DNA from: an uncultured Chloroflexia bacterium
GTDB lineage: Bacteria; Chloroflexota; Limnocylindria; Limnocylindrales; CSP1-4
Reading direction: 5' to 3'
Assembly (NCBI GenBank): GCA_963763775.1
Contig: CAVXPZ010000003.1
Location: forward strand, 288,001 to 352,000
Length of the DNA stretch: 64,000 nt
This document shows, piece after piece, positions 4,080-45,474 of the stretch; within the stretch, counting starts at the first letter, position 1, and every line of letters starts with the position of its first letter. Under the pieces are notes generated by a model that did not search any database, had not been told where the DNA came from, and saw only the letters and a list, made by a program, of their open reading frames with translations. The position numbers were made by a program, and so were the translations under genes.

Positions 4080-4388
4080 TCAGACGCTCGCTGGCGTCGC
4101 CGACAGCGTCCCGGCGCGGACCTTGTCGAAGCAGGAGCTGCAGTAGACCGGCCGGTCGTTCCTCGGCGCGAACGGGACGACGGCCTGCCCCCCGCAGGCG
4201 CCGCAGACCGCCGCGTGGAATTCCCGTGGGCCCTCGTTCGATCGGGCCCGCTTGGCCGCGGCCCGGCACGATGGGCATCGCTGCGGGTCGTTCGTCAGCC
4301 CCTTGCTGGCGTAGAAGGCCTGTTCGCCCGCCGAGAACGTGAATTCGTCGGCACAGTCGCGACAGGTCAGCGCTCGGTCCTGGTACAC
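4080..4388 (-). CDS. Zinc-ribbon + CxxC-x17-CxxC domain protein
   Basis: DRALTCRDC..FTFSAGEQAFY..PQRCPSCR and CGACG..VPFAP..PVYCSSCF; GTG start at 4388 after GGAGAGG. Confidence 0.88.
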   Translation of the reverse strand: MYQDRALTCRDCADEFTFSAGEQAFYASKGLTNDPQRCPSCRAAAKRARSNEGPREFHAAVCGACGGQAVVPFAPRNDRPVYCSSCFDKVRAGTLSATPASV

Positions 4389-4612
4389 CCTCTCCAGCCC
4401 TCCATGGCTCGGGACACCGTGAACCTGGGAGCCCCCGCCCGAGGGATCGTCGGGACCGGCGCAGGGCGCACTGGAACGGGATGCGCGCTCGGTCGGCCCG
4501 GGCTCGGGGGGCCCGGAACTCATAGCCGAGAAGATACGCGCGACGTCAAGCCCTTCCGGACGTTCGGAACCGCGCTGCGGAACCGTTCCGGGCCCGCTAC
4601 CGTCGGGGCGCC

Positions 4613-5525
4613 ATGTCAAAGCTGCATCGCCTCGCCCTGCTCCCGGTCGTCCTCGTCGCCGTCACGGCCTGCACCGGTGGCGGCGCCGGCGCCTCGTCCG
4701 CGCCGCCGTCATCGACGCCGACCGGCGGTCCCTCGACGTCGCCCGAAGCCAGCGGTGCTTCGTTCGGCAAGATCGAGCACGCCACCGGAGCGACGGACGT
4801 CCTGCTGCGTTTCGAGAACGGCGGCGGGTTCGTGCCCCCGTCCTTCCTGGCCACCCAGGCGCCGATCTACACCCTCTACGGCGACGGCACCGTCGTCTTC
4901 CGCAACCCCGCCATCGAGCTTCCCCAGCCGGTCGGCGAGGTCTACCCCCAGAACCCGATGCGCACCGCGAAGCTCTCCGAGGACCAGATCCAACAGGTCC
5001 TCGCCGAGGCCCTCGGCCAGGGTGGGCTCGGCATCGGCGCGGGCCACCTACGAGAACGCCCAGATCTCGGACGCGCCGACCGCGGTGTTCACGGTCGATG
5101 CGGGCGGCATCAAGAAGGCCGTCTCGATCTACGCGCTCGGGATGGACGTCCAGGGCGGGGCCGACGCGCCGGCGCGAGCGGCGTTCCAGCGTCTCGCGGA
5201 CCATCTCGGGAACTTCGACAACGGGGGCACGATCGCTACCGACGTCTATCAACCCGCGGGCTATCGCGCGATCCTGATGGACGGCACCGCGACCCCGGGG
5301 CAGGTCGACTGGCCGTGGACCGACCTCACGCCGAAGGACTTCGCGTTCCCCGCGGACCCGAACATGTTCCAGCAGGCGACCCACGTGCTGACCCAGGCGC
5401 AAGTCGATGCGCTCGGGCTCAAGGACGTCCAGGGCGGGTTCCAGGGGCTCACGATCGCGACGCCCGATGGCGGCAAGGTCTATTCGATGTCGCTGCGACC
5501 CCTGCTGCCCGAGGAGACGTCCTAG
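4613..5525 (+). CDS. Putative lipoprotein (one frameshift near 5040)
   Basis: Signal peptide with lipobox VTAC, Ser/Pro linker; reading continues in the 4215..5525 frame. Confidence 0.7.
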
Positions 5526-5630: not shown

Positions 5631-8600
5631 ATGCGACGCATGGCACTGCCGGATCCGCCCGTTGACACTCGCCGCGAGCGATCCGTATCGTTCGCGCCTC
5701 TCGACGCGCCCGAGCGAATCCATCGTCCAGGCGACCGTCCGTCGATCCCGGTCGGTCCGGGTCGGCCCACGATCGCCGCCGCACAAGCCAGCGGAGCCCA
5801 CCGCGACGACGTGAGCGGCTATCCGATCCAGTACGCGAAGGTCCAGCCTCCGCCATTGCGGGAGGAGACCCTCGCACGCCATCGACTGCTCGACTGGCTT
5901 GCCGCGAAGATCCACCACCGCGTCATCCTGGTACTCGCCGATGCCGGGTACGGCAAGACCACGTTGCTGGCGGACTTCTCGGGACGGACGCGTCTCCGAA
6001 CGCTCTGGTATCGCCTCGACGAGGACGACCGCGACTGGATCTCGCTGCTGAACCACCTCGTCGCGGCCGGTCGCGAGGCGGACCCATCGTTCGCCCCGAC
6101 CACCGCGGCGATGCTGGCCGACACCAGCCTGACCGGTCCGACGATGGATGCGGTCATCGAGGTGTTCATCCGCGAGCTCCAGGGCATCGCGCCCCATGGG
6201 GCGGTGTTGATCTTCGACGATTTCCACCTGGTCGACGACGCGCCGGACGTGCAGCGGATCGCGCGCGAGCTCGTGACGCGGGCGCCGGAGCGGCTGTCGA
6301 TCGTCTTCGCGAGCCGGCGTGCGCCGGGCATCCCGATGGCGCGACTCCGCTCGATCGGCGAGGTCGGGGAGCTGACCACGGACGACCTGCGCTTCGACGC
6401 TGACGAGACCGATCGCCTCTTCCGCGAGTCATACGGCCGAACGCTCGATCCCGATGTCCTCGCCGATGTGACGGCTCGGACCGAGGGCTGGGCCGCGTCG
6501 CTCCAGCTGGTTCACGCGGCCCTTCGCGACCGTACGCCCGGCCAGATCCGCCAGTTCGTGCACAGCCTCACGGGTGCCGACCGCGAGCTCTACGACTACC
6601 TCGCCGAGGAAGTCATCGGCGACCTGCCACCTGACCTCCAGACCTTCCTGATGCGCACCTCGATCCTTCAAGTGGTCACGCCCACCTTTGCTGAAATTGT
6701 CACTGGGGCAGAGGCAGGCTCATGCAGTCGTCTCACCAACTCCGCCGAAAGGCTCACGTTGCTTAGCCGACGGTCCCGTGGACCAAGGAGCGAACTCCGG
6801 TATCACCCCCTTGTTCAGCAGTTCCTCATGTCTCGACTCACGCGAGAGCTTGGGACGGACGGCGTACGCGACCTTCATCGGCTAATGGCGGAATACGCCG
6901 GCAGCCGCGACTGGCGCCTAGCGGCGCACCACCTGTGGTCGGCAGGCGATCAAGTAGATGCTTGGGCGGTCATCGACTTGGCGGCCACCGGAATAGTTGG
7001 TCGAGGGGAATATCTGGTAGCGGCACCGTACCTGGAGGCGGCCACCGAGCGAGTCGAACGCGCCAGCTTCGAAGTAGTGCTGTCGCGTCGAGACTTCAGT
7101 GAGGGCAACATCCGCGGGGCGGTAGCTCATGCCGAACAAGCGGTGCTGCTTGAGCCACGCTCCGACCTGGCGCTTGCCAACTTAGCGTCCCAACACGTAA
7201 ATGCCGGCAACATCGAAGAAGGTGTCGTGTGGGCACGGCGCCTACTTAGCCAGCCGGGGGATCTCGGCATCCAGGGCATTGCTGCGGGAATAATCACAAT
7301 TCATCAGACGTCACTCGACGGCGACGTCACCGCTGCGATCACCGAGTTCTCGAACCTGGCGACGCAACAACACGCGGCGGGTTACATCCACTTCGAGGGC
7401 ATCAGTCAGCTCAACCTTGCTGACGCCTACAGAGCGAGTGGTGATCTCGTGGCATCTCGACGAGCCGCACAGCAGGCTGTCGAGCTCCTTCAGTCAAGTT
7501 CCGCCGGCTCGGAAGTGCAAGTTGCCCAGGCATACGTCGCCTGGGCCGATGCTCACCTCGCTGAGCTCGGAAACGCCCGAGCATCGATCGAGACAGCGTT
7601 GGCAACGGCGAACGACGCAAGTCGCGCGGACGTGCTCTTTGAAGCGAGCGACCTCGAAGCCGCATACGGCAGTCAGAACGCTGCCGCGGACCACCTTGCC
7701 CATCTGCGCGCAACGGGTGCCGGGGCGGTTGCCGGACAGGTCGCGTCCCTTGAAGTGCTCGTTGCGCTGAGGCTGGACAACCAGGAAGAGGCCCTGCGGA
7801 GGTCTGAGTCGCTGGGGAGGGGTGTCCCAAGCAGTCTGATCGCACACCAGGCTCGCGACATGGTTGTTCGTGCGCACGCCATGGCGTCCGCGATGGCAGA
7901 CGGCGCGAGCGATGCGATCGCCCGGGCACACTTTCATGCTGAGTCGCAGACGGCGGGGCTGTGGGCTGAGTACGCAGCTGCCCTTCGAGCCGTTACGGCC
8001 GAGCGCGACGGACTCAATGCCTACGTCAGATCACGTGGCCGGGTCGGCTTGTGGCCGCTGTCGCGTGTCGCAGAGCTGTTGACCAACCGCCTGAACGATC
8101 TCGGGGGAGACGAGGCCGATTCTGTTCGAGCCGAGGTGGTTCTCCGTCCCGACCGGTGGCGGTCGGCGCTCCGCCTCTCGGTCGACCGGCGAATGGGCGA
8201 CGGGTTGAACGCAGCGAGGCTGCTTGACTTGGTAGGTGAACACGAGGACGTCGTACGACTTCGAAATGTCGCTCACAAGCATCGGGGCCGACCAGACGCG
8301 GAGCTCGGCCGAGGATTGGCCCGGCGCCTAGCTCCGATGGTCTTTGTCGAGGACCTCGGCCGCGTCTCCCTGCGCATTGGCGAACGCGCGATAGAGGGTT
8401 CCTCAGTTCGACGCAAAGTGCTGGCGTTGCTCTGCTTCCTGGTCACCCGACCAAGGTTCTCGGCAACGCGTGACGAAGTGATGGACGCACTCTGGCCCGA
8501 CTTCGATCCTGGTGACGCACAGAACTCGTTAAACCAGACGGTGTACTTCCTAAGGCGCGTGTTTGAACCGGACTACAAGGACGATCTGTCGCCTGGATAC

Positions 8601-9074
8601 GTCCACCACGAGTCCGATGTGATCTGGCTGGACGAGGCCCTGGTTTCCTCACGAAGCTCGAGCTGTGTAGCGCTCATTCGATCGATGACGTCCGAACCAA
8701 CGCCTGTCGAGGTCGAGCAGCTGTCGGTTGACTACATCGCGCCATTCGCTCTCGACTTCGCCTACGAGGAATGGGCTGGTGACTACCGCTCGTCGCTGCA
8801 CTCGAGTTACCTGCAGGTCATCGAAAAGGCAGTCACGGTCGATACCGCGAGTGGGCACTTCGATCGAGGGATCAACCTAGCGAGGAGAGCCTTGGACCTG
8901 TCGCCAGATGCGGACCAGGTCGAGTTGTCCCTGCTGCGAATGCTCCAACTGAATGGGTCTCATGCAGCGGCTGCCGAGCAGTACAGCCACTACGCCGCGG
9001 CGCAGCGCGACACCTATGGAATCGAGCCGCCGGCCCTCGAATTCCTTGTGAGGATAGGTAAGGTGCCGTATTGA
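5631..9074 (+). CDS. MalT-like STAND ATPase-TPR-BTAD transcriptional regulator (start could be 5640 or 5811)
   Basis: KVQPP..LARHRLL, ADAGYGKTT Walker A, LIFDDFH Walker B, TEGWAASLQL, RYHPL, helical repeat middle, C-terminal wHTH (LLCFLV..TRDEVMDALWP..SLNQTVYFLRR) plus BTAD. Confidence 0.88.
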   Translation: MRRMALPDPPVDTRRERSVSFAPLDAPERIHRPGDRPSIPVGPGRPTIAAAQASGAHRDDVSGYPIQYAKVQPPPLREETLARHRLLDWLAAKIHHRVILVLADAGYGKTTLLADFSGRTRLRTLWYRLDEDDRDWISLLNHLVAAGREADPSFAPTTAAMLADTSLTGPTMDAVIEVFIRELQGIAPHGAVLIFDDFHLVDDAPDVQRIARELVTRAPERLSIVFASRRAPGIPMARLRSIGEVGELTTDDLRFDADETDRLFRESYGRTLDPDVLADVTARTEGWAASLQLVHAALRDRTPGQIRQFVHSLTGADRELYDYLAEEVIGDLPPDLQTFLMRTSILQVVTPTFAEIVTGAEAGSCSRLTNSAERLTLLSRRSRGPRSELRYHPLVQQFLMSRLTRELGTDGVRDLHRLMAEYAGSRDWRLAAHHLWSAGDQVDAWAVIDLAATGIVGRGEYLVAAPYLEAATERVERASFEVVLSRRDFSEGNIRGAVAHAEQAVLLEPRSDLALANLASQHVNAGNIEEGVVWARRLLSQPGDLGIQGIAAGIITIHQTSLDGDVTAAITEFSNLATQQHAAGYIHFEGISQLNLADAYRASGDLVASRRAAQQAVELLQSSSAGSEVQVAQAYVAWADAHLAELGNARASIETALATANDASRADVLFEASDLEAAYGSQNAAADHLAHLRATGAGAVAGQVASLEVLVALRLDNQEEALRRSESLGRGVPSSLIAHQARDMVVRAHAMASAMADGASDAIARAHFHAESQTAGLWAEYAAALRAVTAERDGLNAYVRSRGRVGLWPLSRVAELLTNRLNDLGGDEADSVRAEVVLRPDRWRSALRLSVDRRMGDGLNAARLLDLVGEHEDVVRLRNVAHKHRGRPDAELGRGLARRLAPMVFVEDLGRVSLRIGERAIEGSSVRRKVLALLCFLVTRPRFSATRDEVMDALWPDFDPGDAQNSLNQTVYFLRRVFEPDYKDDLSPGYVHHESDVIWLDEALVSSRSSSCVALIRSMTSEPTPVEVEQLSVDYIAPFALDFAYEEWAGDYRSSLHSSYLQVIEKAVTVDTASGHFDRGINLARRALDLSPDADQVELSLLRMLQLNGSHAAAAEQYSHYAAAQRDTYGIEPPALEFLVRIGKVPY

Positions 9075-9128
9075 CCGGTTGGGTCCGGCATCCATATAGT
9101 CCGGCCACTTCGTAGTACTCCGGTACTA
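9071..9128 (+). promoter_or_regulatory. Putative sigma70 promoter of the peptide genes with downstream palindromic operator
   Basis: TTGACC 9071-9076, TATAGT 9095-9100 (18 bp spacer), TAGTAC-TCCG-GTACTA 9113-9128. Confidence 0.6.
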
Positions 9129-9274
9129 GGAAGCCGTGTCAAGACGCTCGGACGCGCAGAAGCACCACCTGAAATGGGCACTTGGGGTGGGGCAGAGCGA
9201 GTAGTGCAACCGACCGACTCACAGCCGGTCGGTTTTCGTGTTCCAAACACGAAGGCCGCAAAGGAGGAACGAGC

Positions 9275-9328
9275 GTGACAGCCGAGTCCATCAAGGGCTG
9301 GCTTCCCGAGTCCATCAAGGGCTGGTAG
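9275..9328 (+). CDS. 17-aa peptide MTAESIKGWLPESIKGW
   Basis: AAGGAGG 9261-9267, 7 nt before GTG; TAG stop; in-frame repeat of ESIKGW. Confidence 0.7.
   Translation: MTAESIKGWLPESIKGW
9282..9325 (+). repeat. Perfect 20-bp direct repeat, 24-bp period
   Basis: CCGAGTCCATCAAGGGCTGG at 9282-9301 and 9306-9325. Confidence 0.95.
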
Positions 9329-9340
9329 GGAAACGCAGCC

Positions 9341-9430
9341 GTGAAGGCTAGGATTGTGCGAGTCCTCGTCGCGCTCTCGAGCGTGGCGATGATCGCACTC
9401 GCAGGTGGAGCTTCCCTGAGGGGCTTCTAG
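9341..9430 (+). CDS. 29-aa signal-peptide-like precursor MKARIVRVLVALSSVAMIALAGGASLRGF
   Basis: GTG start, basic n-region, hydrophobic h-region, LAG-G lipobox-like junction, SLRGF tail; weak RBS AGGGAA. Confidence 0.7.
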   Translation: MKARIVRVLVALSSVAMIALAGGASLRGF

Positions 9431-9506
9431 TACGTTGGTCCCATTACCTCGGAGAGCGGCGAGGGGCTACAGTTCCCGGGTAGTGGACCAGCGAATTAGG
9501 CAGTCT

Positions 9507-10910
9507 ATGCCAAAGTCCCTCAAGCTCTACATCGCTGGAGTCGTGGCTCTGGGCGCCGTTGCGCTCGTGGCTACGACTCTTGTGTTTCTGCCGTACCCGG
9601 AGATCGCGCTCGGATACGATCCCACCGCAGGTCAGCCATCCGATGCCAGCGTCTTCTTGGGGATCGTGTTCTGGACAATCCTGGCGCTGGTGGGTTCAGC
9701 CCTCCCTGTCCAACTCCCACGTGGCTCCCAGCACGCCGTGGCCATCGCGCCAATCATGGCTGCGCTGTTTCTAGGGGGGCCAACCGTTGGGGCTTGGGTG
9801 GCGGCAATCGGCACGACAGAGGTCCGAGAGCTCCGCGGCCGCATCCCGTGGTACGGGACCCTGGCAAATCACGCGGGCCTGGTCATTCCGGCCGTCGCCG
9901 GTGGTTTGATTGTCAATGTAACCCGAGGAGTCGCCGAAGGTCCGGTCGCACAATTCAGCGTGGCGATGGTCGCCGCGACTGTATTCCTGCTGCTGAACCT
10001 CCTGCTCGCTTCGGCGCTCCTCGCTCTCCGCACAGATCAACGCATCATCGAGGTCAGTCGCGGAGACCTTCGAGGCATCGCGGGAAGTTGGGTTGCACTC
10101 GCGCCGCTGGCGTGGCTGATGGCCCTGATCTACGGGGTCCAGTGGTGGGCGACCGCGCTGTTCGCCGTTCCGCTGTACTCGACGCGTCTCGCGTACCAGC
10201 GCTTCGTCGAGATGCGCGACATGTTCACGCAGACCATCGGTGCGCTCGCCGAGGCGGTCGACAAACGCGATCCGAACACCGCGCGCCACAGTCATCGCGT
10301 GAAGGAGATGTCGGTCGACATCGGCCGGGTCCTGCGAGTGTCCGACGCGGAGCTGGAGGCCCTGGAATGGGGCGGCCTGCTCCACGACGTCGGCAAGATC
10401 GGCGTCCCGGACAACGTCCTGCTCAAGCAGGACAAGCTCACGCGAGAAGAGCGGATGATCATGAACGCGCACCCGGTCCTGGGTGCCGAGATCATCGCCC
10501 CGGTCACGAAGCTCGCCCCCGAGCTGCCGATCATCCGGCACCACCACGAGTGGTACAACGGCTCGGGCTACCCGGACCGGCTCATCGGCGACGAGATCCC
10601 GAAGCTCGCCAGGGTCCTGCACGTGGCCGACGCCTTCGAGGCCATGACCGCCTCCCGCCCGTACCGACCGACACCGCTGACCAAGGAGCAGGCCCTCGCC
10701 GAGCTGCGCAAGTTCGCGGGTATCCAGTTCGACCCGGTCGTGGTCGACGCGTTCGTCCGAACGCCCTGGGTCGATGGCGTCCCCGATGCGGGCCGCACCC
10801 CGGAGCCCCGGCCGATCCCGCTCATCGCCCAGCACGCCGAGCAACTCACCAAGGCCGTCCGCGCCGACGACGCCACCGTCGTCGCCAACGCCACGGTCGA
10901 GCAGGTCTGA
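9507..10910 (+). CDS. Membrane-sensor HD-GYP phosphodiesterase (start 9483 or 9507)
   Basis: About 7 TM segments, then LLHDVGKIG, HHEWYNGSGYP, VADAFEAMT..RPYR. Confidence 0.92.
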   Translation: MPKSLKLYIAGVVALGAVALVATTLVFLPYPEIALGYDPTAGQPSDASVFLGIVFWTILALVGSALPVQLPRGSQHAVAIAPIMAALFLGGPTVGAWVAAIGTTEVRELRGRIPWYGTLANHAGLVIPAVAGGLIVNVTRGVAEGPVAQFSVAMVAATVFLLLNLLLASALLALRTDQRIIEVSRGDLRGIAGSWVALAPLAWLMALIYGVQWWATALFAVPLYSTRLAYQRFVEMRDMFTQTIGALAEAVDKRDPNTARHSHRVKEMSVDIGRVLRVSDAELEALEWGGLLHDVGKIGVPDNVLLKQDKLTREERMIMNAHPVLGAEIIAPVTKLAPELPIIRHHHEWYNGSGYPDRLIGDEIPKLARVLHVADAFEAMTASRPYRPTPLTKEQALAELRKFAGIQFDPVVVDAFVRTPWVDGVPDAGRTPEPRPIPLIAQHAEQLTKAVRADDATVVANATVEQV

Positions 10911-10988: not shown

Positions 10989-12933
10989 GTGATCCTCGCC
11001 GGCATCGCCATCGGGCTCATCCTCGGGCTCCTGGCCGGTGGCCGCATCACGAACCTCGGCTCCGTCAGCCTCCGCTGGGTCCCGCTGCTGGTCGTCGCCC
11101 TGATCCTCCGGTTCGGGACGGAATTCCTCCTCGCGGACGGCAACGCCATCGCCGATGCGCTTCGCGTGCCGCTCCTCGCGACATCGTTCGCGCTCCTCCT
11201 GGCGGGGATCTGGGCCAACCGCACCTACCCGGGCATGACGCTCGCATTCGTCGGGACGCTGTCGAACGGGCTCGTGATCCTCGTCAACGGCGGCTACATG
11301 CCGATCTGGGAACCGAGCCTGGTGGCGGCCGGCTTCACGACCGCGGACGTCTCGACGACGATCCACACGATCCTGCCGGCCACCCTCGATGCGAGCTTCC
11401 TGCTCCATCTCGGCCCGCTCGCCGATGTCATCCCGATCCCCATACCGCCGATCCAGAACGTGGCCTCGGTCGGCGATGTCTTCCTGATGTTCGGCCTGGC
11501 GTTCTTCCTCTTCGCCAGCGTGGTCCGCGTCCCCGAGGCGGTCTCGGGCAGCGCAGGGACGGGTCTGTCGCCCGCGATGTCCGGGGTCGCGTCACTCGAC
11601 CGGCCGGTGGTGCTGGGCGGCCAGGCCGGACGCCTCGCGTCGCCGTCGCGGATCGCGATCCCCGTCACGCCAACCCGTCGTCGGCGAACGTATCCGACAC
11701 CACCCGTATGTCCGCCTCGCGCTCAACGGCTCGTTCTCGGCGCTGTGGGCCGGGCAGTTCATCTCGATCCTGGGCGACCGCATCAACACGGTCGCGCTGG
11801 CCGCCATCGTCTATGGCACCACGGAGTCGCTCACGGCCGGCGCCTTCGCGTTCGTCGTGGCGACGCTCCCGAACCTCTTCCTCTCGCCGTTCGCGGGAAC
11901 GCTCGTCGACCGCTGGGACCGCAAGGAGGTCCTGGTCGTCAGCGACATCCTGCGGGCAGCCCTCGTGCTGCTCATCCCGCTGGCGGTCATCGTCAATCTG
12001 CTCTTCGCCTACGTCCTGATCTTCCTCGTGACCGCGGTGTCGATCTTCTTCCGGCCGGCGCGGGTGGCGATCCTCCCGCAGCTCGTCGACGACGGCGACC
12101 TCGTCACGGCGAACTCGGCGATGTGGATCGGCGAGACCTCCGCGGACATCATCGGGTACTCCATCGCTGGCCTCCTCGTGTGGGGACTCGGGACGGCGCT
12201 CCCCCTCGCGTTCTGGCTCGATGCCGTGACGTACCTCGCGTCCGCCATCCTGCTGGCGACGCTCATCGTGCGGCCGATCCCACCCGAGGAGGCCGAGCGG
12301 GCGGCCATCGAGCGCGACACGCTCGGGTTCTTCGGACAGATGCGCGAGGGCCTCCGATTCCTCCGCCGCGAGCCGACGCTCCTCGCGAACACGATCCAGG
12401 CGTCGGTGGCGCAGTGCACGGTCGGGGCGCTGCTCGCGCTGATGTACGCCTACGCGCTCCAGGTCTACGCCAGCTCGGCGATCGACTGGAAGGCGGCGTA
12501 CGGCTTCCTCGAGACGAGCGTCGGGGCCGGCAACCTGCTCGGCGGTTTCGTCATCGGGCTCGTCGGCGCGCGACTCGCCAAGGGACGCTCGATCATCGGC
12601 GGGTACGTCGTGTTCGGGGTCTTCACGATCCTGATGGCGCTCTCGAACCAGCTCCCGATCGCCCTCGCGTTCGGGTTCGGCGCCGGGGTCGCGAACATGG
12701 CGTTCGTGATCCCGAGCCAGACCCTGTTCCAGGAGCGGACGCCGGCCGGGCTGATGGGACGGGTGGTCAGCTTCCGATTCGCCCTGGTGTTCGGGGCGAT
12801 GACGGTCGCCGCCGCCATGGCCGCGTTGTTGCTGCTCGTCCTGAGCGCCACGACCGTCCTCGTGATGTTCTCGGTCGTGACGATCGGGGCGGGGCTGGCG
12901 GGATGGCTCGTGCCGGCCCTTCGTGACGCGTGA
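10989..12933 (+). CDS. DUF5317-MFS transporter fusion (frameshift near 11670)
   Basis: N-part: GGRITNL..LRW, SNGLVILVNGGYMP, LADVIP..SVGDVF; C-part: LWAGQFISILGD, GTLVDRWDRK MFS motif A; MFS frame has no start codon between stop 11485 and 11857. Confidence 0.8.
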
Positions 12934-16937: not shown

Positions 16938-18313
16938 TCTCGACCACGCGACGACGCCCCGACGCTGCCGACCTCATCGCGCTGACGACCATCGTCGTCG
17001 GCTTCGTCGTGCTGCTCGCGCTGGGCCGCGGCCTGACGTTCTTCGCCGACGAGTGGGCCGTGATCGGCGACCGCCCGATCGGCATCGACACCTTCTTCCG
17101 CCCGTTCAACGAGCACTGGCTCGGCGTCATGACGCTGGTCCACCGGGCGATGGTGGAGACCATCGGCCTCGGCACGTACATGCCGTACCTGGCGGTCCTC
17201 GCGGCGCTCCACGCCGTGGTCGTCGCCGAGGTCTACGTCATCGCGCGACGCGGCACGTGGCCGCTGCTGGCGGCCGGCATCGCCGTCATCGTGGCGTTCT
17301 TCGGGAGCGGCTTCGAGAACCTGTTCTGGGCGATGCAGATCGGCTTCGTCGGGTCGGTCGCCATGGGCTTCGGCTCGCTGCTGCTGCTCGACGGCCGGCC
17401 GACGCGCGGCCGGGTCGCTGGAGCCGTGGCCCTCTCGACGCTGAGCATCGCGACGTCGGGGTTCGGGCTGTTCATGCTGGCGCTCGTCGGGCTGGACCTC
17501 CTCTGCGACCCACGGCGACGGCGCCTCGCCCTCGCGATGGTGGTGCCCGCCGGCGTGTATGCCGGCTGGTACCTCGCCTTCGGGCGTGCCGGGTTGGCGA
17601 CGTACGGCGACCCGTTCACGCTCGGTCGGCTGGTCGCGATCCCGCTCTTCACGCTCGACGGCACGGCCGAGGCGTTCAGCTCCGCGACAGGGTCCGGCCG
17701 CGAGCTCGGTCGGGTCATCGTCCTGGCGCTCGCCGGCTGGCTCGCGTTCCGCGCCATCCGACGACAGCCGATCCCGCCGCGAGCCCTCGCCTTCTTCGGG
17801 GCGATCGTCGTCGAGTACGGACTGCTGTCGCTGGTCCGGGCCCAGCTCGATGTCGACGCGACCTACTACAGCCGCTACTCGTACCTCTCCGGGATCTTCG
17901 CGCTGCTGGGCATCGCCGAGCTCATCGGCCGCCGACCCGTCCCGGCGGACCCGCGCGTCCGGTTCGTGGCCGTAGCGGCCGTCGCCTCGGTCTTCGTGCT
18001 CTCGCTCACGCTGAACGTCAGCCTGCTCCTCGGCGGCCGGGAGCTGTTCGCGCAGCGAGCCGAGATGACGCGGGCCCTCGTCCAACTCGGGACGACGATG
18101 CCGCTCCCCCCTGGGGTGAACCCGGACCTCAGCCTGGTCCTCGTGCCATCGCCGGTGCGACTCGACCGGATCGTCGCGCAGTACGGCTCGCCGCTGCACG
18201 ACAGCCTGGCCGGCGACGTCGTCCCGGCGATCCCCGCCATCGTCCAGGCAGATGCCCTCGACCGCGCGACGCACCCGCCGGCGTGGCTCCTCGCGGCGCC
18301 GGACAGCTTCTAG
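16934..18313 (+). CDS. Multi-TM protein, probable GT-C glycosyltransferase
   Basis: FFADEW after TM1, NEH, ENLFW, SRYSY. Confidence 0.65.
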   Translation: MISTTRRRPDAADLIALTTIVVGFVVLLALGRGLTFFADEWAVIGDRPIGIDTFFRPFNEHWLGVMTLVHRAMVETIGLGTYMPYLAVLAALHAVVVAEVYVIARRGTWPLLAAGIAVIVAFFGSGFENLFWAMQIGFVGSVAMGFGSLLLLDGRPTRGRVAGAVALSTLSIATSGFGLFMLALVGLDLLCDPRRRRLALAMVVPAGVYAGWYLAFGRAGLATYGDPFTLGRLVAIPLFTLDGTAEAFSSATGSGRELGRVIVLALAGWLAFRAIRRQPIPPRALAFFGAIVVEYGLLSLVRAQLDVDATYYSRYSYLSGIFALLGIAELIGRRPVPADPRVRFVAVAAVASVFVLSLTLNVSLLLGGRELFAQRAEMTRALVQLGTTMPLPPGVNPDLSLVLVPSPVRLDRIVAQYGSPLHDSLAGDVVPAIPAIVQADALDRATHPPAWLLAAPDSF

Positions 18314-24047: not shown

Positions 24048-25260
24048 CTCACCGGTCCCTCGTCGGACCAGGAGGCGCTGGATGGGCTCGTCGACGGCGC
24101 CCCACTCGTACTTGTAGGGCTCGTCGCCGCGGAGGAAGTCGATGCGGCGCTTGCCAGCGCGCGAGGGCGCGCTCGACGTAGGCATGACCATGACGACGCC
24201 CGGCGACAGGTCGCGGGCGTCCGGATCGACGCCGGCGTTGTAGTAGAGGTAGCCGTCGGGCGTCTCGAAGTGGACGCCGGCGGCGATGCGCCGCCCGCCC
24301 ACGGTCAGGAACGTCAGGCGGAGCGGGCCGTCCGCGCCGCAGAGCTCGAACAGCCGCCGGAAGAAGACGCGGCTCTGCTCGCCGCCCGGGCGTCGGCGGG
24401 AACAGGCCGTCGACGCCCCAGCGCTTCTGGTGGAGGTCGATGAACGCCTCGAGGTCGGCGAGCGGATCGGCCGAGTCGTCGAGACGGATCTCGCCGCTCG
24501 CCTCGGCCCGGCGGACCTTGCGCCGGATCTCGTGGCGCTCCTTCTTGCCGAGCGACGTCGAGGTAGTCGTCCATCGACGCGCCGACCGGCAGCGTCACGA
24601 CCGGGCAGACGTCCTCGCGCTCGAGGTTGAGGGTCCAGCCCTCGGCGATCTCGCGGGCGCCGAACGCCGCCGCGAGCGCGTCGGCCGCCGGATCGCCGCA
24701 GCGCAGTCGCCGGAGGTCGACGACGTCCCAGGTCGCCGCGCGCCGGCTCCGGCGCCAGGTAGTCGGCGAGCGCGTCCGCGACCGCGGGCAGGTCGGCCGG
24801 CGCCGCCAGGACGGTCGCGTAGTCGGCGTGATACGAGGCCCCGAAGAAGACGGCCGTGGCGTCGGGGCCACCGGCGTCAGCGTCGCGTCGGCGCCGTGGC
24901 GCATCGTCGTGTGCGTCGAGGCGTCGGTCGGCTCGACCTCGTGGCGGTGCATCAGCGGGACGATCGCGACCGGGTCGGCCGTCCGTCCGCCGGGCGTCGG
25001 CCGGGACCAGCGACGAGGGTCTCCTCGTGGGCGTTCGCGCCGTACGCGTCCCACCACGCGCGCTGGAACGCCCAGCCGGGAGAACGGGGTCGCCCACGGC
25101 GCCTGGGCAGCGAGCGCGTCCCAGGTCGCGGCCGGGATGCTCGGCGACGTCGCGTCGCTCGCGCGAAGCGCAGGGCCGGCGCCGTGGCCGCCTCGGTCGA
25201 GGCGGAGGCTGGGCCGGCCTCCGGACAGGCAGGCTCCCGGTCGATGGTCAGGGAGGTCAC
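24044..25260 (-). CDS. GNAT acetyltransferase, CelD/BcsL-like (frameshifted)
   Basis: ADYAT, RHEIRRK, YYNAGVDP..LSPG, IDFLRGDEPYKYEWGA. Confidence 0.8.
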
Positions 25261-25316
25261 GCCCGCGAGGATAGCATCGGTCGCCCGAAATGGTTGCGGC
25301 GGCAACGGGCCCGCGG

Positions 25317-27615
25317 TCAGACGCCAGATCGTGAGGTACCGCAGAAGGTCGGCGTAGTCATCCGTGAAGGGATGGTCGGCGGCCTCCACCGGACCCCAGC
25401 CGGCCGCCACCAACGCCGCGATCTTCGCCGGATCTCGCGAGGCGGCGAGCCACCTCGACGGGGTCCCGCCCGGTTCGCCGGACGCCTTGGGGTCGTACGA
25501 GCGCTCGAGGATCGTGAGCCCTTCGCGGGTGACCGCCGCGGCGATCGGCGGCGCGAGGTCGTAGTACCGATTCGAGATGTGGAACGCCACGAGCGCCGTC
25601 CGGGGTCACGCGTCCGGAGCTCGTCGGCGATGGCCTCGACCGTCAGGAGGTGGACCGGCACCGAGTCCGACGAGAACGCATCGAGCACGAGCAGGTCGTA
25701 GCGGGCATCGGGCTCCTGCTGGAGGGAGAGCCGGGCATCGCCCACCACGATCCGCGGCGGGGTCGGCGCATCGGTCAGGTAGGTGAAGTAGCGAGGGTCC
25801 GACGCGACCTTCACGACGACCGGGTCGATCTCGAAGAAGGTCATCGGCGTCCCCGGTCGCTCGTAGGTGGCGAGTGCGCCGCCGCCCAGGCCCAGGACCC
25901 CGACGACCGGCGCCGGGTCCGCGGCGTCGGCCACGCGGAAGATGTCGCCCGCCGGCCCGCGCGTCGAGTAGTAGCTCAGCGGGATCCGCCGACGGGCGGG
26001 ATCGGTCGATTGCGTGCCGTGCACGGTCGTGCCGTTCATGAGGATCCTGAGGTCGCCGTCCGCCGGATGGAGGACCTCGGTCACGCCGAAGAAGCTGCGC
26101 TCCCGGAACTCCGCCGGCGGCTGGAGCACGAAGGTCGCCAAGGCGAGCACGAACGCGGTCGCGATGGCCAGGAACCACGGACGGGCTCCCACCGCGAGGA
26201 TCAGCCCGCCGACGAGCAGCCAGCGCAGACCGGCCTCGGCCGCGAGCGAGCCGGTCACGACGAGCCCGACGACCAGCAGACCGCCGAGGCGGCGAGGTAC
26301 GGCAGCATCCGGCCGCGGAACCCGGTCACGAACGGCCGGAAGTCCAGACGTCCGCCGGCTCGGCGGACCAGGGCCGGCGCCGGGGTCACGAGCGCCAATG
26401 CGACGAGGGCCGCCACGAGGAGGATCGGATATTCCCAGACGCCCGGGAAGACCATCGGCGCGACGATGGCGACGAAGGCACTCGCCATCGCGCCACCCAT
26501 GGCGAGGATCAGGTAGAACTCCGTGACGTGGGAGGCATCCGGGTGGTCCTGCGCCAGGCGGCCGTGGAGGGCGAGAGCGACGATCGCGAAGGCCACCAGC
26601 TCGAGCGGCAGGATCAGCGTGATGGGCCAGCCGCCGGCCGACCCGTAGGGGACCCAGAGGAGCGTGACCATGGCCGGGGCGGCGACGACCGCAGCCCTGA
26701 TGGCACGACCGCCGCGCGGCGAGAACGCGACGATGAACGATGCGAGATAGATCGCGAGCGGGACGACCCAGAGCAGCGGCGCCGAGACGAGGTCGGTCGC
26801 GATGAAGGTCGTGACGGCCGAGAGGAGACCGGACGGGACCGCCGCGAGCAGCAGCCATCGGAAGCGCCGGGGCCAGTCGATCGGGACGGCGGCGGTCGAC
26901 GTCGCGCGCTCGTCCAGAGCCGAGACCGCAGCCGTCGTCGCGAGCAGCCGCGCCCGAGTCCACAGCGACCGGGAGGACCCGGGTGGCCGTCAGCGCCAGC
27001 AGTCCGATGAGCACCGCGTACCCCACGGCCCAGACGCCTCGCTGCACGGACAGCCCGAGGCGTGGCTCGATGAGGAGCGGGTAGGCCAGGAGGGCGAGGA
27101 GCGACCCGCCGTTGCTGAGGGCGTACAGCCAGTACGGGTCGCCGGCGTCGCCGGCACTCGGGTCGCCGTCCGGCCGGGACAGGTGGAGCCAACCCGACAC
27201 CAACGGGGTCGTGGTCGTGAGGACGAACGCCGGCAGGCCGATGACGAGCAGCAGGATGCAGGACGAGGTCGGCGACGGGCGTGACCGCCTCGGACCGCAG
27301 GTCCGCGACGCGGGACGGAGCCGTGAGGAGCGCGACGAGACCGAGCCCGGCGATGACGAGGTGGATGGGCGGACCCCATCGGCCGAACCGCGTCACCGAG
27401 AGGTGGCTGTAGAGGTAGCCGGCCAGCAGCACCGCCTGGAAGAAGAACAGCGTCGTGGCCCAGACGGCCGGCGTGCCGCCGAAGACCGGCAGCGTCAGGC
27501 GGCCGACCAGCGGCTCCACGCTGAAGAGCAGGAACGCGGACAACCCGATCGGCAAGGCGAACGGGAGCGCGGTATCCAGGACGGGGCGAGCCACGGTCAG
27601 GCTGCGGACGGTCAT
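25317..27615 (-). CDS. Membrane domain + spermidine synthase-like SAM-binding domain fusion (frameshifted)
   Basis: SAFLLFSVEP..GGTPAVW, PYWLYALSN, GTTVHGTQ, GLGGG, DAFSSDSVPVHLLT. Confidence 0.82.
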
Positions 27616-29981: not shown

Positions 29982-30831
29982 GTCGCCATGATGGGGTGCG
30001 CGGAGGCACCGCGGCACGCACCAGGGGTACTACCGCCACTAGAACGCTCAGCCCGGCGAACCACAGGGATGGAAGTGCCAGGGTGATGGCCACGACGCAC
30101 AGGACATCGCCCCGCCGTTCGTCGAGCCGCGACGCGATGACGACGATCACGAGCGCGGCGACCGCCCGGACCAGGAACGGGATCGGGACGAACGACGACT
30201 GGCCCATCGGCCCGTTCGCCGTCAGGAACGCGACGTACGCCTGCCAGTCCGCGAGCGACAGGGCGACGCTGACCGCGAGGATCGCCAGGCCGACGGCCAG
30301 CGAGATCGCCGCGTCGCGCCATCGGCCGCGGAGCGCGATGTACGGGATCCCCAGCCCAGGCGACACCTTGATCGCCGCCCCCACGGCGAACCAGCCCGCC
30401 CAGCGGCGAAGGCCCAGCACGACCAGGACCGCGAGGAACAGGTTGACGTTGCGGAACCAGAACTCCGCGGCGACCGGCGGGAAGGCGACGAGCGCGAGCG
30501 TCCAGAGGATGTCGCGGCCGGCAAGCCACCAGAGGGCCACCAGCATCCCGGCGGTCCACAGGATGCTGAACAGCCACGACGGCACGATGGCCACGACCGG
30601 CACCAGCGCCTGGGCGAGCGGTGGCGGGTAGAGGTAGGCGTACGGGGTGACGATGGTCGCGTTCGGGTCGTAGAGCGGCAGGCCGTGGAGGAGGCGATCC
30701 GCCGCGAGCCAGTAGGCGTGCTCGTCGGCCGGCGTGCCCCAGCGGTAGACCGCCACGACCAGCAGGAGGACCGCGCCGATCGCGGCCAGGACCACGAGCC
30801 ACCATGGGGCCTTCGCCGCGCTCGAGGTCAT
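29974..30831 (-). CDS. GT87/DUF2029 glycosyltransferase
   Basis: DEHAYW, YLYPPPLA, NVNL, IKVSP. Confidence 0.8.
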   Translation of the reverse strand: MTSSAAKAPWWLVVLAAIGAVLLLVVAVYRWGTPADEHAYWLAADRLLHGLPLYDPNATIVTPYAYLYPPPLAQALVPVVAIVPSWLFSILWTAGMLVALWWLAGRDILWTLALVAFPPVAAEFWFRNVNLFLAVLVVLGLRRWAGWFAVGAAIKVSPGLGIPYIALRGRWRDAAISLAVGLAILAVSVALSLADWQAYVAFLTANGPMGQSSFVPIPFLVRAVAALVIVVIASRLDERRGDVLCVVAITLALPSLWFAGLSVLVAVVPLVRAAVPPRTPSWRHA

Positions 30832-32024
30832 CGGTAGGCCAGATAGGCGCCGAGCGCCATCACGACGGTCCCGAAGACGATCAGCGCCTTCCAGCCGCGG
30901 CCCACGCCGTCCCGTCGGACCGCCGCGAGTCCACACAGCGCCATCACGAACGGCACCGAATCCAGGAAGTAGCGGTACCCGTATTGGAACCACCCACCGC
31001 CGTAATACAGCAGCGTCGGGATCAGGACCAGGATCGTGGCGGCGGCGAGCCACCACGAGCGGGGAGATCGCCAGTCGGCGCGCACGGCGAAGAGCAGACC
31101 GGGACTCGTGAGGAAGATCGACATCCCGAGCCCATCCATCCGGAAGAACGGGAAGTCCGGGCTGGCGAGCGGCAGATGGATGAACAGGTAGTCGAGGTTC
31201 ATCGGGATGTGGCGGATCGAGAACAGACCCAGGGCCCGTTGCTGCTCGAGGAACGGCGGGAGCGTGGCCAGCGCGTAGCCGGACTCGAACGGGTTCCCGA
31301 ATCTGACCTGGTTGTAGAGGAAGAAAGCCGCGACGGCTGGCAGGACCCCGACCCCGTACCAGAACCAGGTCCGGACTCAGCCGCGATGGGACCGCCACGT
31401 GCATCCAGTGACCGGGGAACCCGAGGACGATGGCGTACATCGGGATCGCGAACGCCAGCGGCGCCCGCGTCAGGAACGCGGCGCCGGCAAGCAAGCCGAT
31501 CAGCCAGGGCCGCCGCTGCCCCCAGATCTCGATGCAGACAGGCGAACGTCAGGATCGTCGCGATCAACTGACCGGTGTGCCAGACGCCGCCTCGGGTCGT
31601 GATCCAAAGGATCTGCGTCGAGAACCCGAACAGGACCGACAGCCAGACCCGGTCGCGAGGTCGACCGACCCCGATCCGACCGAGGAGCCACCAACACATC
31701 CCGACGCCGGCCGCCGCGAGGACGGCGTCGATGCCGGATTCGATCTGGTCGGCGGTCACGGGACCGATCAGCGCCACGATCGGCATCAACGCGACAGCCG
31801 GGAACGGGGCGAACGGGACGTAGACCCGTCCACCGACGAGGATCACGTCGAACGGACCGGGTTGGAACGTCCAGCCAGGTCCGTCCGTGCAGGAAGGCGT
31901 CGGCGAGGTAGAAGAAGTCGCCGCGACCGGCGTCGAAGTTCCGCGCGGCGAGCCAGTACAACAACGCGGAGATCGCGACCAGGGTCCAGCCGATGCCCGC
32001 GGTCCCGACGCGAACGCGCGTCAT
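30828..32024 (-). CDS. Multi-TM protein, probable GT-C glycosyltransferase (frameshifted)
   Basis: LADAFLHG, YVPFAPFPA, YNQVRFGNPFESGY, QYGYRYFLD. Confidence 0.65.
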
Positions 32025-33140: not shown

Positions 33141-33944
33141 CAGGAGGTCCGCGCGACGCCTCGGCCGCTCGAGCGATGGATCAACGGGATGCGGAGCAGG
33201 TCCCAGGCGACGCGCAGGGCCAGGCCGGGCCGGGCGCGCATCCGCGACCCTCGGCGGTCGAACCAGCGGATCGGCACGATCGCCATCGCGTACCCACGAC
33301 GACGGGCGAGGTAGATGAGCTCGACATCGAAGACGATGCTCGTGATCCGCTGCCGGCCGAACAGGTCGTGCGCCGCCTCGCGGGTGAAGCCCTTGAACCC
33401 GCACTGCGTGTCCTGGACCGGGCCGACCACCCAGATCGAGGCCAGCGTGTGGAAGATCTTGCCCAGCCATCGTCGATAGACCGGCTGGCTGGCGCGCATG
33501 TCCGAGCCGTCGGGCTGGATCCGCGAGCCCAGCGCGACGTCGTGGTCGGCCAGCGCCGCCACCAGCAGCGGCAGCTGGTCCGGCGGGGTCGCCATGTCGG
33601 CGTCCGCGAAGACCACGAGGTCGGCGTCGATCGCCAGCATCCCGGCGCGGACCGCCGCGCCCTTGCCGCCGTGCGGGACGGTCAGGACGCGCAGCGTGAC
33701 GCCGCCTTCGGGGCTCGTGCTCTCGCGGCGGGCGCTGACGAGTGCGGCGGTCCCATCGGTGCTGCCGTCGTCCACGACGAGGACGTCGATCCGAGCCGGC
33801 AGACCACCGGCCCCCGGGGCGCCGTCGCGGGCGAGTGTCGCCGCGTCGACGGAGGTAGCCGAAGAGCTCGTCCAGGGCCGGCTCGATCCGGGATGCCTCG
33901 TTGAAGGCGGGCAGGACGAGCCCGAGGCTATCGTTCGGCGACAT
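33140..33944 (-). CDS. GT2 dolichyl-phosphate glucosyltransferase-like (frameshift near 33845)
   Basis: LPAFNEA, DDGSTDGT, GKGAAVRAG, DAD, DTQCGFKGF, FDVE. Confidence 0.88.
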
Positions 33945-34825
33945 CCGGCGCAGTGTAGTCGTCCGGTCGTCGCCCGGCGGCCTGCAGGGTCGAGAACTGG
34001 TACATCAGCAGCCGCGGCGAGGCCAGCACCGCGAGGAGGACGGCCGTCGCCCACCCGAACTTGGTCGTCGACGCCCGCCAGGCGAGGATGGCCAGGGCGG
34101 CCACCATGGCCGCCCAGAGGACCGGCGAGAACGCGTATGGCGAGAGATTGCGGACCTCGCCGACCTGGCCCAGATCCGTGAAGGTCAGGAACGCGATCGA
34201 GCCGGCCGGCTCGAGGATGAACGAGACCGCGGCGATCCCGGCAAGCCACGCCACGAGCCCGGCCGATCGCACGGAGGTCGCGTCGCCCGATCCAGTAGAT
34301 CGCCACGAGGATCGGCAGCAGCTTGAGGTTCGTCGCGAGCGCGACGGCGAGCGGACTGCCGATCGTCAGGAACAGCGTCACGAGGACCTGTGCCTGGCCG
34401 ATGGCCAGGCTCCACGCGATCGGGGCCGCGAGCCATCCGAGCATGAGCCACGTCCACCGTCGTCGGACTCCGAGCCGGAGGATCGTCAGCACGAACGCGG
34501 CCAGCAGCACGCCCTCCCAGATGAGCGCCGCCTGCTCGAACGGCAGCGTCGCCAGCGGTCGGAAGATGATCGCCAGGAGCGGCGGGTACCGATAGAAGGA
34601 CGGATCGTCCGTCGTGGCGGCCTGCTCGTAGAGCGGGAGCCCGGCGTTGAGCCGCGCTCCGGCGTCGTAGTAGGCATGGACGTCGCCGAGCGGGTCCAGC
34701 TGCAGGTGGATCCGGAGCGTGTCGAGGCCGATGATCGTCCCGAGGATGGCCGCGGCGATCAGGACGTACTGGACTCGGCGCGTTTGGAGGAGTCGCTCCA
34801 GGCCGGTCGTGTCGAAGGCGGTCAC
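33928..34825 (-). CDS. GT87/DUF2029 glycosyltransferase (frameshift near 34265)
   Basis: DVHAYY, YRYPPLLA, GQAQ, LKLLP. Confidence 0.78.
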
Positions 34826-35918: not shown

Positions 35919-36008
35919 GACGACGGGAGCCTACGCTCATCGCGCCGCCGTGACCCCGGGACCTGCGTACACTCCCACGGCGGGACCATGGTCGTCGGGA
36001 GGTGATGG

Positions 36009-44931: not shown

Positions 44932-45099
44932 GTGGCCGCTCGACGGCGACCGCTCGCCCAGGGGTTGGTCGAGTACGGACTGATCCTCGCCCTGACGGCG
45001 GTCTTCACCGTCCTGATCCTTGGCGTCTTCGGCGGCACCGTCGCCGACATCCTCGGCGTCATCGGCACGGCGATCGATGCGGCCACCGGTGGCTCCTGA
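44932..45099 (+). CDS. Divergent Flp-like pilin (55 aa)
   Basis: MAARRRPLAQGLVEYGLILALTAVFTVLILGVFGG...; GAGGGG RBS; below ORF-track cutoff. Confidence 0.75.
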   Translation: MAARRRPLAQGLVEYGLILALTAVFTVLILGVFGGTVADILGVIGTAIDAATGGS

Positions 45100-45231
45100 T
45101 GGTGTCCGGCCGCACACAGATGGGTCAGGGTCCCGTCAGTACCATCGCGCTAGTGTGTTCCGTGGAGCGTCCTTCATATATTGGCGCAGCCCTCGCATTT
45201 GGGGGTTGAGTACTCATCCAGGAGGCCACAC

Positions 45232-45414: not shown

Positions 45415-45437
45415 TACCGGGTCACCACCCAAGCGTT

Positions 45438-45474
45438 CGAGACCGCCGCACCCCTCGGGGTCGCGGCGGTCTCG
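45438..45474 (+). terminator. Hairpin after first flp
   Basis: CGAGACCGCCGC...GCGGCGGTCTCG. Confidence 0.65.

Follow-up and report, generated by a model that had tools for sequence, protein, structure and literature searches.

Polymorphic cassettes of a signal and its receptor are textbook cases in a few cultured Firmicutes. The agr (agrB-D-C) and comQXP loci form specificity groups, or pherotypes, that differ in a hypervariable block with breakpoints inside genes, and their catalytic cores are conserved. The RRNPP systems (Rap-Phr, PlcR-PapR, and Rgg-SHP) combine a helix-turn-helix (HTH)-TPR receptor of about 300–400 amino acids (aa) with a cognate exported pro-peptide. Here we describe a two-gene locus of comparable organization in a 64-kb stretch of DNA (G000:C3:288001-352000; this whole stretch is called the window below) from a genome of an uncultured soil family. 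The source genome has a size of 3.3 Mb in 4 contigs, and the window contains about 71% G+C. The locus, whose genes and control elements all lie on the plus strand, encodes a STAND regulator of 1147 aa (5631–9074), which consists of a MalT-type NTPase, a TPR sensor, and a putative C-terminal SARP module (winged HTH, wHTH, and BTAD), and an HD-GYP phosphodiesterase of 467 aa from the ATG at 9507 (9507–10910), which begins with a membrane sensor. Both are on record as gene calls, the regulator with exactly the protein of the open reading frame (ORF). A cyclic di-GMP (c-di-GMP) riboswitch and two very small ORFs, pep1 and pep2, lie between the two genes. Comparison of related sequences indicates that the block from the middle of the regulator gene to the end of the membrane sensor is an exchangeable hypervariable unit with breakpoints inside both genes. 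We regard this structural claim as strong; peptide signaling is a candidate role of the locus.

Like agr and comQXP, the locus possesses a hypervariable block whose breakpoints fall within genes and which is bordered on each side by a conserved catalytic core. It also shares with them a small peptide gene that immediately precedes a polytopic membrane sensor with a conserved output domain, and several alleles among near-identical genomes (here the population of the metagenome contigs L081 and L082). It differs from these systems in its output, which is an HD-GYP c-di-GMP phosphodiesterase instead of a histidine kinase, in the presence of a second, cytoplasmic receptor (STAND-TPR-SARP) in the block, in the riboswitch preceding the peptides, and in the lack of an AgrB- or ComQ-like processing gene in the block. 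Moreover, the allele diversity is far beyond a handful of groups, and peptide signaling is a candidate function here. The RRNPP systems are similar in that a cytoplasmic TPR regulator lies beside short peptide genes, and pep2 is similar to a short hydrophobic peptide. However, a 1147-aa STAND NTPase carrying the SARP module at its C-terminus takes the place of an HTH-TPR protein of about 300 aa, and pep1, which is 9–10 aa long in most loci, has no export signal in its sequence. The large STAND-SARP receptor and the absence of a signal sequence in pep1 rule out membership of the locus in RRNPP. The same population-genetic signature (identical flanks, ancient alleles, and breakpoints inside genes) is now seen in an uncultured high-GC soil family, and the parts it encloses are different ones: a c-di-GMP-II riboswitch, unannotated ORFs of 9–29 aa, a STAND regulator, and an HD-GYP enzyme.

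The exchange is most directly seen in a comparison of L081 and L082. These two contigs are 99–100% identical over at least 1.5 kb upstream of the STAND gene and over its first 1500 nucleotides (nt) or so. Inside the block, the identity is 46–66% in the TPR region, 63–82% in the SARP module, and 57–76% across pep1, pep2, and the membrane sensor, and the riboswitch forms the most conserved island of the block (97%). The identity is back to 100% from the window-equivalent position 10107 and stays so for at least 1.8 kb. The divergent tract corresponds to 7190–10106 of the window, and its 3′ end agrees with the position of 10110 given in a preliminary description of the locus, which had foreseen high identity of relatives in the flanks and a sharp drop inside. 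The 3′ break at 10107–10110, where both the identity and the G+C content at third codon positions (GC3) return, is common to all the swaps seen. The NTPase part is shared at 99–100% by six contigs; among them, one allele (100%) occurs in L075, L076, and L081 and the other in L082, and L083 and L087 are too short for allele assignment. The TPR region of L081 is also found in L088 (98%). The allele of L082 has no close relative among the collected loci.

Partial swaps were found among homologous proteins. In a set of 96 full-length STAND homologs, P0039 and P0040 are 100% identical, including the SARP domain, except for aa 476–925 (40–76% identity; a difference of about 40% in the TPR region), which makes this a swap of the TPR region alone. 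In other STAND pairs, the 5′ break lies at aa 375–550, and the divergence continues through the SARP domain. Among 83 HD-GYP proteins, the pairs with a p-distance below 0.01 in the HD domain showed sensor p-distances of either 0.15 or less (14 pairs) or 0.30–0.50 (14 pairs), with none in between, and the identity of the HD-GYP mosaics jumps to 95–100% at about aa 200, which corresponds to about 10107 in the window. The protein pairs are representatives of 90%-identity clusters; therefore, pairs that are alike throughout are hidden, swap-type pairs are enriched by construction, and the frequencies of swaps cannot be read from these numbers. The preliminary description had proposed that signal and receptor specificities are exchanged or co-diversify as one unit. 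The whole-block swap between L081 and L082 is as proposed, but the TPR-only and sensor-only swaps depart from a single unit. The TPR diversity is nearly continuous, with 73 clusters at 70% identity among the 96 proteins, and does not resolve into a few pherotypes.

Phylogenetic analyses of the separate segments led to a similar view. The major clades are identical in all segment trees made with FastTree. In the TPR tree, L141 groups with the source locus with a support of 99, and the clade found in the flanks is rejected by the approximately unbiased (AU) test (p-AU 0.0013, 14 loci). Conversely, the TPR grouping is rejected by the NTPase segment (p 0.008), the HD segment (p 1.3e-6), and the concatenation of these two segments (p 8.7e-5). 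The SARP and sensor segments of the 14 loci do not reject the flank clade. Incongruent domain trees had been expected in the preliminary description, and the conflict was found for the TPR region. The AU tests were carried out on quick trees with 14 of the 25 usable loci, L013 being excluded owing to its long branch and many frameshifts. The tested clades were named only once the FastTree trees were known, and the p values are weakened accordingly.

Synonymous divergence (dS) also changes along the locus and reaches 3–6 times the flank level inside the block. Between L141 and L143, the dS values are 0.43 in the NTPase, 1.76 in the TPR region, 1.77 in the SARP module, 1.16 in the membrane sensor, and 0.29 in the HD domain. 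The pairs L146–L148 and L015–L143 similarly display 2–4-fold higher values in the block than in the flanks, and in the closest pair, L155–L156, dS is flat across the locus (0.10–0.15). Four-fold sites at identical residues agree with this picture. The excess of dS in the block over the flanks ranges from about 1 to more than 4 between pairs, and the SARP domain is conserved at the protein level (dN/dS 0.04–0.11) yet shares the high dS. Such an excess cannot be wholly due to local hypermutation or simply to less constrained synonymous sites.

In the source genome, the 5′ break in composition and identity lies at 6670–6700, where GC3 falls from 0.86 to 0.60–0.66. The identity to all five nearest relatives drops from about 80% to about 60% at 6680–6700. 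The relatives L013, L014, and L057–L059 hold GC3 values of 82–90 for another 400–500 nt, whereas the source falls to 60–62. Because the relatives keep their high GC3 past 6670, the border at this position is peculiar to the source lineage, and it probably marks a replacement tract of this lineage. The closest counterparts of the source TPR region are only 45% identical (among 300 family genomes) and 47% identical (protein collection).

The block is also distinguished by its codon usage. In the STAND gene, GC3 is 0.84 over 5631–6680 (350 codons) and 0.684 over 6681–9071 (797 codons), and in the frame of the HD-GYP gene it is 0.689 over 9435–10109 (225 codons) and 0.929 over 10110–10907 (266 codons). 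The two-proportion z values, calculated by hand for boundaries that were picked post hoc from data already inspected, are about 5.5 for the 5′ step and about 6.9 for the 3′ step. With sliding windows of 50 codons, GC3 falls from 0.86 (6531–6680) to 0.66 (6621–6770) and rises again from 0.70 (9975–10124) to 0.84 (10065–10214), placing the steps at about 6620–6680 and 10065–10110. The overall G+C content drops from about 0.70 to 0.57–0.66 inside the block. These values confirm the shift near 6670 and the return near 10110 that the preliminary description had reported from hand counts, with a sliding GC3 plot suggested as a check. Our ORF and domain searches also agree with its account of the block as comprising the TPR and BTAD part, two peptides, and most of the membrane sensor without the ATPase and HD-GYP cores. 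To this content, the 3′ part of the STAND gene, pep1, pep2, and the sensor, we add the riboswitch, which was absent from the earlier account. In the genome, the mean GC3 of genes is 0.86 (standard deviation 0.076; 2262 non-overlapping ORFs chosen greedily), and a GC3 of 0.69 or less occurs in about 1% of 198 windows of 800 codons and in about 6% of 3054 windows of 300 codons. The GC3 of the block is unusual for the genome, though not unique. Among the 213 bins of 300 nt in the 64-kb window, the longest run with a best-frame GC3 of 0.82 or less starts at 6601 and extends over 12 bins, the runner-up runs having 5, 4, and 3 bins.

The same dip in GC3 is found in the relatives. In orthologous loci, the best-frame GC3 starts high in the NTPase part, lies at about 0.6–0.78 from the TPR region to the membrane sensor, and returns to high values in the HD domain. 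Of the 13 genus loci (species), 11 show a clear dip and two a partial one, L019 having no 3′ recovery and L020 a weak 5′ step, and the dip is seen in 11 of the 12 family metagenome loci that hold both genes. The atypical composition had been taken in the preliminary description as a sign of a swap in the source genome. The occurrence in the relatives contradicts this: throughout the genus and the family, the block stably keeps a low GC3, which does not identify it as recently acquired foreign DNA. Across 33 windows of 50 aa, GC3 is correlated with the conservation of the protein (Spearman 0.67). However, the effect is regional and block-like, not site-wise: the conserved wHTH (identity 0.77) has a GC3 of 0.72, and the less conserved aa 151–200 of the NTPase (identity 0.60) have a GC3 of 0.85. 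The parts of the window that are unalignable to the two nearest genomes (G003 and G017) show a high GC3 (0.76–0.99 per bin), and therefore low GC3 is no general trait of variable DNA here. Four stretches in the window (17100–18300, 25200–27600, 30000–30900, and 33900–38400) are without a syntenic DNA match in these two genomes; their GC3 is normal and high, and they may represent variable gene content of another kind. Since the flanks are 20–30% diverged between species, a passive relic would have faded, and some process would thus seem to maintain the dip.

The conserved anchors on the two sides of the block are the catalytic parts of the two proteins. The MalT-like NTPase/arm region (aa 69–460, 5835–7010) matches the NCBIfam MalT model NF003420 (E 8.4e-55), and aa 51–350 show a mean pairwise identity of 0.62–0.85. 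Only this region matches the model, and the score of 186.2 bits is below the equivalog cut-off of 537. The regulator as a MalT equivalog is ruled out by this score, and its sequence indicates a STAND-type NTPase other than MalT. The hypervariable TPR sensor region (aa 451–850, 6981–8180) follows, with a mean pairwise identity of 0.23–0.43. The SARP-type DNA-binding module (8370–9038) comprises Trans_reg_C (8409–8576) and BTAD (8739–9029). The Pfam matches of the regulator to AAA_22, TPR_2, Trans_reg_C, and BTAD are weak, the source scores being just below the cut-offs for Trans_reg_C (22.4 versus 26.2 bits) and BTAD (21.7 versus 22.1 bits); BTAD is above the cut-off in the relative P0007 (27.5 versus 22.1 bits). 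The last 230 residues or so match the SARP chain of AfsR in the PDB (8hvr_I, E 4.9e-4), and relatives of the regulator are labeled "MalT / DNA-binding SARP family" by JGI. In AfsR, the SARP module is N-terminal, and MalT carries a LuxR HTH. The regulator is thus like MalT and AfsR in its MalT-type NTPase (NF003420), repeat sensor domain, and AfsR-like SARP module (8hvr_I), and unlike them in that its score is far from the equivalog range (186 versus 537), the SARP module is C-terminal, and the sensor is swapped between strains. A homolog, P0016, is 82% identical to the source in the NTPase region and differs in the C-terminal part past the TPR region; its precomputed Pfam list does not contain the SARP module.

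On the 3′ side, the HD-GYP catalytic domain (10245–10742) is represented by the Pfam domain HD_5 (E 4.3e-38) at aa 271–436 of P0002, with a GC3 of 0.93, and shows 76–87% identity across the genus. The HD motif LLHDVGK and the GYP motif HHHEWYNGSGYP are present in the translation. The hypervariable multi-pass membrane sensor (9507–10106) has about seven hydrophobic segments, which were counted by eye from the translation. The source sensor has no Pfam match at E up to 1, and the sensor is MASE9-like in relatives, P0128 matching MASE9 (PF20972) with 32.5 bits against a cut-off of 24.3.

The control region between the two genes starts with a promoter-like sequence, TTGACC-18-TATAGT (9071–9100), which overlaps the stop codon of the STAND gene, matches at 10 of 12 positions, and is kept in an alignment of 14 genus loci. 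A palindrome, TAGTAC-N4-GTACTA (9113–9128; −14.4 kcal/mol, z −2.67), may be an operator or a 5′ hairpin; its arms are invariant in 13 of the 14 genus loci and its spacer is variable, L025 being short of one base of the 5′ arm. The aptamer of a c-di-GMP-II riboswitch (RF01786, 9141–9224) was found with 61.4 bits, above the Rfam gathering score of 53.5 (E 4.4e-13), over the full model positions 1–84, and it is the sole RF01786 match in the 64-kb window and in the source genome. Compensatory double changes were observed in 4 of the 18 predicted helix pairs among 33 family sequences (one pair, for example, is CG in 21, UA in 8, and GC in 1), and most pairs are invariant. A terminator-like hairpin with a U run (9208–9240; −14.9 kcal/mol, z −2.68) has a conserved stem and a variable loop, and its 5′ arm sits inside the 3′ side of the aptamer. 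The promoter boxes, the aptamer core, and the terminator stem are conserved over the 14 loci with few single-base differences. The half-site TAGTAC recurs at the stop codon of pep2 (TAGTACG; 9428–9450) and is followed in the genus alignment by a conserved stretch, …GGTCCCATTACC; this feature could act as another operator or as an RNA element in front of the start of the HD-GYP gene.

The element agrees with RF01786 in the score above the gathering cut-off, the conserved core, the compensatory pairs, and the terminator overlapping the aptamer. It is unlike the described members in its presumed targets, two micro-ORFs and an HD-GYP gene, and in its setting inside a polymorphic cassette of a high-GC soil lineage. 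The nearest report that we found concerns Clostridioides difficile, in which, as described in 2026, paralogous small membrane proteins of 58 aa are encoded behind class I OFF c-di-GMP riboswitches and act on sporulation (PMC13724677). Compared by this description, both cases have small, unannotated membrane-associated proteins directly downstream of c-di-GMP riboswitches; here, in contrast, the ORFs encode 9–17 and 29 aa, the aptamer is of class II, and the terminator geometry suggests an ON switch. No publication on the arrangement of a riboswitch, micro-ORFs, and an HD-GYP gene was found in the literature searched, in which articles were covered without their supplements.

The two micro-ORFs are conserved and were missed by gene callers. 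In the source, pep1 (9275–9328) starts with GTG, is preceded by AGGAGG at 9262–9267, and encodes 17 aa with two tandem units ending in ESIKGW (M-TAESIKGW-LPESIKGW). The family pattern is M-x-[PA]-[ED]-x(3-4)-K-[GAP]-[WFY]-stop; across 45 distinct loci, the first unit occurs in 30 different versions. In the genus alignment, the conserved P, E, and G are encoded by synonymous codons. On two independent occasions the unit has been multiplied in frame, giving two units in the source, L013, L014, and L140 and three TSVTKGF units in the metagenome locus L114 (7555 onwards). The second ORF, pep2 (9341–9430), encodes a hydrophobic peptide of 29 aa with a basic N-terminus followed by a hydrophobic run and ends in LAGGASLRGF; it has no Pfam or NCBIfam match and is absent from the protein collection. 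Both peptides share a C-terminal [KR]-G-[WF] motif, which changes in parallel in several loci (KGW with KGW and KGF with KGF). The pep1 frame is broken by single-base indels in several long-read metagenome-assembled genomes (MAGs; G010, G001, G353, G316, and G402). We read these breaks as probable assembly errors. The same assemblies break large genes: of the 34 genus loci (L013–L025 and L137–L156), 21 have a STAND gene interrupted by frame breaks, mostly in few-contig assemblies and probably by long-read indel errors. Counts of broken pep1 or sensor genes are limited by these breaks.

The relation of pep1 to the two sensors was examined by pairwise distances. In all 21 pairs with different pep1 and an HD distance below 0.03, the sensor distance is at least 0.24, and in the 32 pairs with the same pep1 it is 0.01–0.49. 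Thus, pep1 moves together with the sensor cassette, an outcome that linkage by itself would also produce. Partial Mantel correlations of pep1 with the TPR region (r 0.43) and with the membrane sensor (r 0.45), obtained with 21 of the 25 loci after removal of four in which the pep1 frame is broken, carry little weight, since linkage and kinship confound them.

We consider it rather probable that the low-GC3 block (about 6680–10107) is the variable core of a conserved two-gene signaling locus, present in much of this soil family, whose alleles are exchanged. The comparisons show that the segment from the middle of the STAND gene to the junction of the sensor and the HD domain exists as many very divergent alleles. 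Homologous recombination, for which the conserved NTPase and HD-GYP cores provide the anchors, replaces these alleles, the replacement taking in the whole block, the TPR region alone, or the membrane sensor alone. Heterologous alleles may be unable to form a heteroduplex with each other, and consequently GC-favoring forces (biased gene conversion or weak selection) would act less in the block than in the recombining flanks, leaving GC3 at about 0.7. A link between recombination and GC content has been reported (Lassalle et al., PMC4450053), and our proposal is in line with it. As the terminator overlaps the aptamer, the riboswitch would be an ON switch in which c-di-GMP binding sequesters the 5′ arm of the terminator. 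High c-di-GMP would then induce pep1, pep2, and the phosphodiesterase, forming a negative feedback loop, and the overlapping promoter may be a target of the SARP regulator. The peptides are candidate allele-specific partners of the membrane sensor, the TPR region, or both, and we infer that they could be signals read by these sensors. Such a locus would tie peptide or kin recognition to the turnover of a second messenger in a concrete and testable way.

A further step would be an agr-like, multi-allelic communication cassette, in which the riboswitch licenses two micro-peptides ([KR]-G-[WF]) that are read by two allele-matched receptors in the same block: the seven-transmembrane MASE9-like sensor driving the HD-GYP phosphodiesterase and the cytoplasmic STAND-TPR-SARP transcription factor. 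To us this is a tentative idea, possible but doubtful. If it is true, kin-specific peptide signaling would feed straight into the turnover of c-di-GMP in a soil lineage that is abundant and uncultured.

Several observations weigh against an exchanged signaling core as we propose it. L081 and L082 are metagenome assemblies, and a double chimera at the conserved borders is possible. No alternative allele was found in the source species, for which the HD-GYP protein P0005 (99% identical to the source through the sensor) and two soil metagenome runs (shares 0.10 and 0.07) represent the same allele; the 151-nt contigs of these runs are near-identical to the source inside and outside the block and are silent on the absence of other alleles. 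In an NTPase-based metagenome scan, the contigs closest to the source locus (L057–L059) were too short to span the block. Alternative alleles on flanks of 99–100% identity were met in a related population (L075, L076, and L081 versus L082). The lower GC3 may itself speed synonymous drift, the ratio in the closest pair being at most about 1.5, and biased gene conversion as the cause of the low GC3 is a conjecture of ours. With regard to the peptides, the block contains no processing or export gene, the C-terminus of pep2 is nearly invariant across the family, unlike a specificity determinant, and the TPR region differs by 0.37–0.51 where pep1 is unchanged, which speaks against a simple lock and key of pep1 and TPR. 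The covariation of peptide and sensor foreseen in the preliminary description fits the L081 and L082 alleles, which differ in pep1 (MAPESVKGW and MAPESAKAW), but not the strong divergence of the TPR region beside an unchanged pep1.

Some of these points would be explained if variable external ligands, such as molecules of phages or competitors and surface cues, drive the diversification of the TPR region and of the membrane sensor separately, in an arms race or in tracking of the environment. The small ORFs would not be signals in that case: pep1 would serve as a regulatory leader or arrest peptide, pep2 would belong to the HD-GYP protein as a small membrane subunit, and both would change with the block merely through their position between two sensors. 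The near-continuous TPR diversity, the change of the TPR region while pep1 stays, the swaps of the TPR region or the sensor alone, the nearly invariant pep2 C-terminus, and the lack of an export signal in pep1 all favor this explanation, as do the small membrane proteins known under c-di-GMP riboswitches in C. difficile (PMC13724677). It accounts less well for the variation of the pep1 core with P-E and K-G-aromatic kept, the independent in-frame multiplication of pep1 (two units in the source clade and three in L114), the joint movement of the peptides and both sensors in whole-block swaps, and the shared C-terminal motif of pep1 and pep2 with its parallel changes in several loci. On balance, we hold that diversification against external ligands is unlikely.

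Two other explanations dispense with a long-lived exchange of alleles. Recent horizontal acquisition of a lower-GC cassette by the source genome would fit its abrupt 5′ border, which lies 400–500 nt further 5′ than in the relatives (GC3 82–90 there), and the source lineage may indeed have had its own replacement event. However, the dip recurs in almost every locus of the genus and the family, the neighborhood contains no mobile-element genes, the TPR region is without a close relative (best matches of 45% and 47% as above), and species 25–30% apart in the flanks would presumably have shed a passive relic; acquisition of this kind is very unlikely. The other explanation assumes no exchange at all, the block being weakly constrained and fast-evolving and its codon bias relaxing along with it. 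This would agree with the correlation of GC3 with conservation and with the same major clades in all segment trees. It is contradicted by identity that falls from 100% to about 50% and then climbs to 100% again along sequences that otherwise do not differ, unless these are assembly artefacts, as well as by the variation of the dS excess between pairs, the rejection of congruence in the AU tests, and the high dS of the conserved SARP domain. We consider it the least probable of the explanations. Under the preferred reading of an exchanged variable core, the locus is a natural example of a within-gene GC3 step that marks a long-lived allelic stratum and not foreign DNA, which bears on composition-based calls of horizontal transfer.

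The locus is widespread in the family. DNA similar to 9060–9530 was matched in 219 of 358 other family genomes, in 30 of 44 genera, and was not matched in 42 genomes of the sister family; the TPR segment was matched in 222 of 300 family genomes. The genome G246 is included in both tallies and G223 in the latter only. Two homologs are named Chloroflexota MAGs at NCBI, which is a hint to the phylum only.

The neighboring genes encode DnaB, a zinc-ribbon-like ORF, a lipoprotein-like ORF, DUF5317, an MFS transporter, and PCMT. No integrase, insertion sequence (IS), or other mobility gene is present among them, in agreement with the preliminary description. The ORFs at 4215–5525 and 11502–12923 have no Pfam or NCBIfam match. 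Downstream of the block, the ORF at 10989–12926 (645 aa) does not represent a single gene: about 200 residues at its start are all that looks genuine (DUF5317), and the rest reads as out-of-frame high-GC sequence, the MFS transporter (MFS_1 and MFS_3 matches), which lies outside the block, being encoded in another frame at 11857–12933. Elsewhere in the window, two patches of low G+C and low GC3 (45000–46500 and 52500–53700; G+C 0.62–0.66, runs of 3–5 bins) align to the relatives only partly and have no Rfam match at gathering scores. Upstream of the regulator are a minus-strand zinc-ribbon-like ORF (4080–4619) and a plus-strand lipoprotein-like gene from 4613, which seems to run on in the frame of the ORF at 4215–5525, suggesting an assembly frameshift. 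The upstream segment 4080–5525 is inverted relative to the STAND gene in several relatives.

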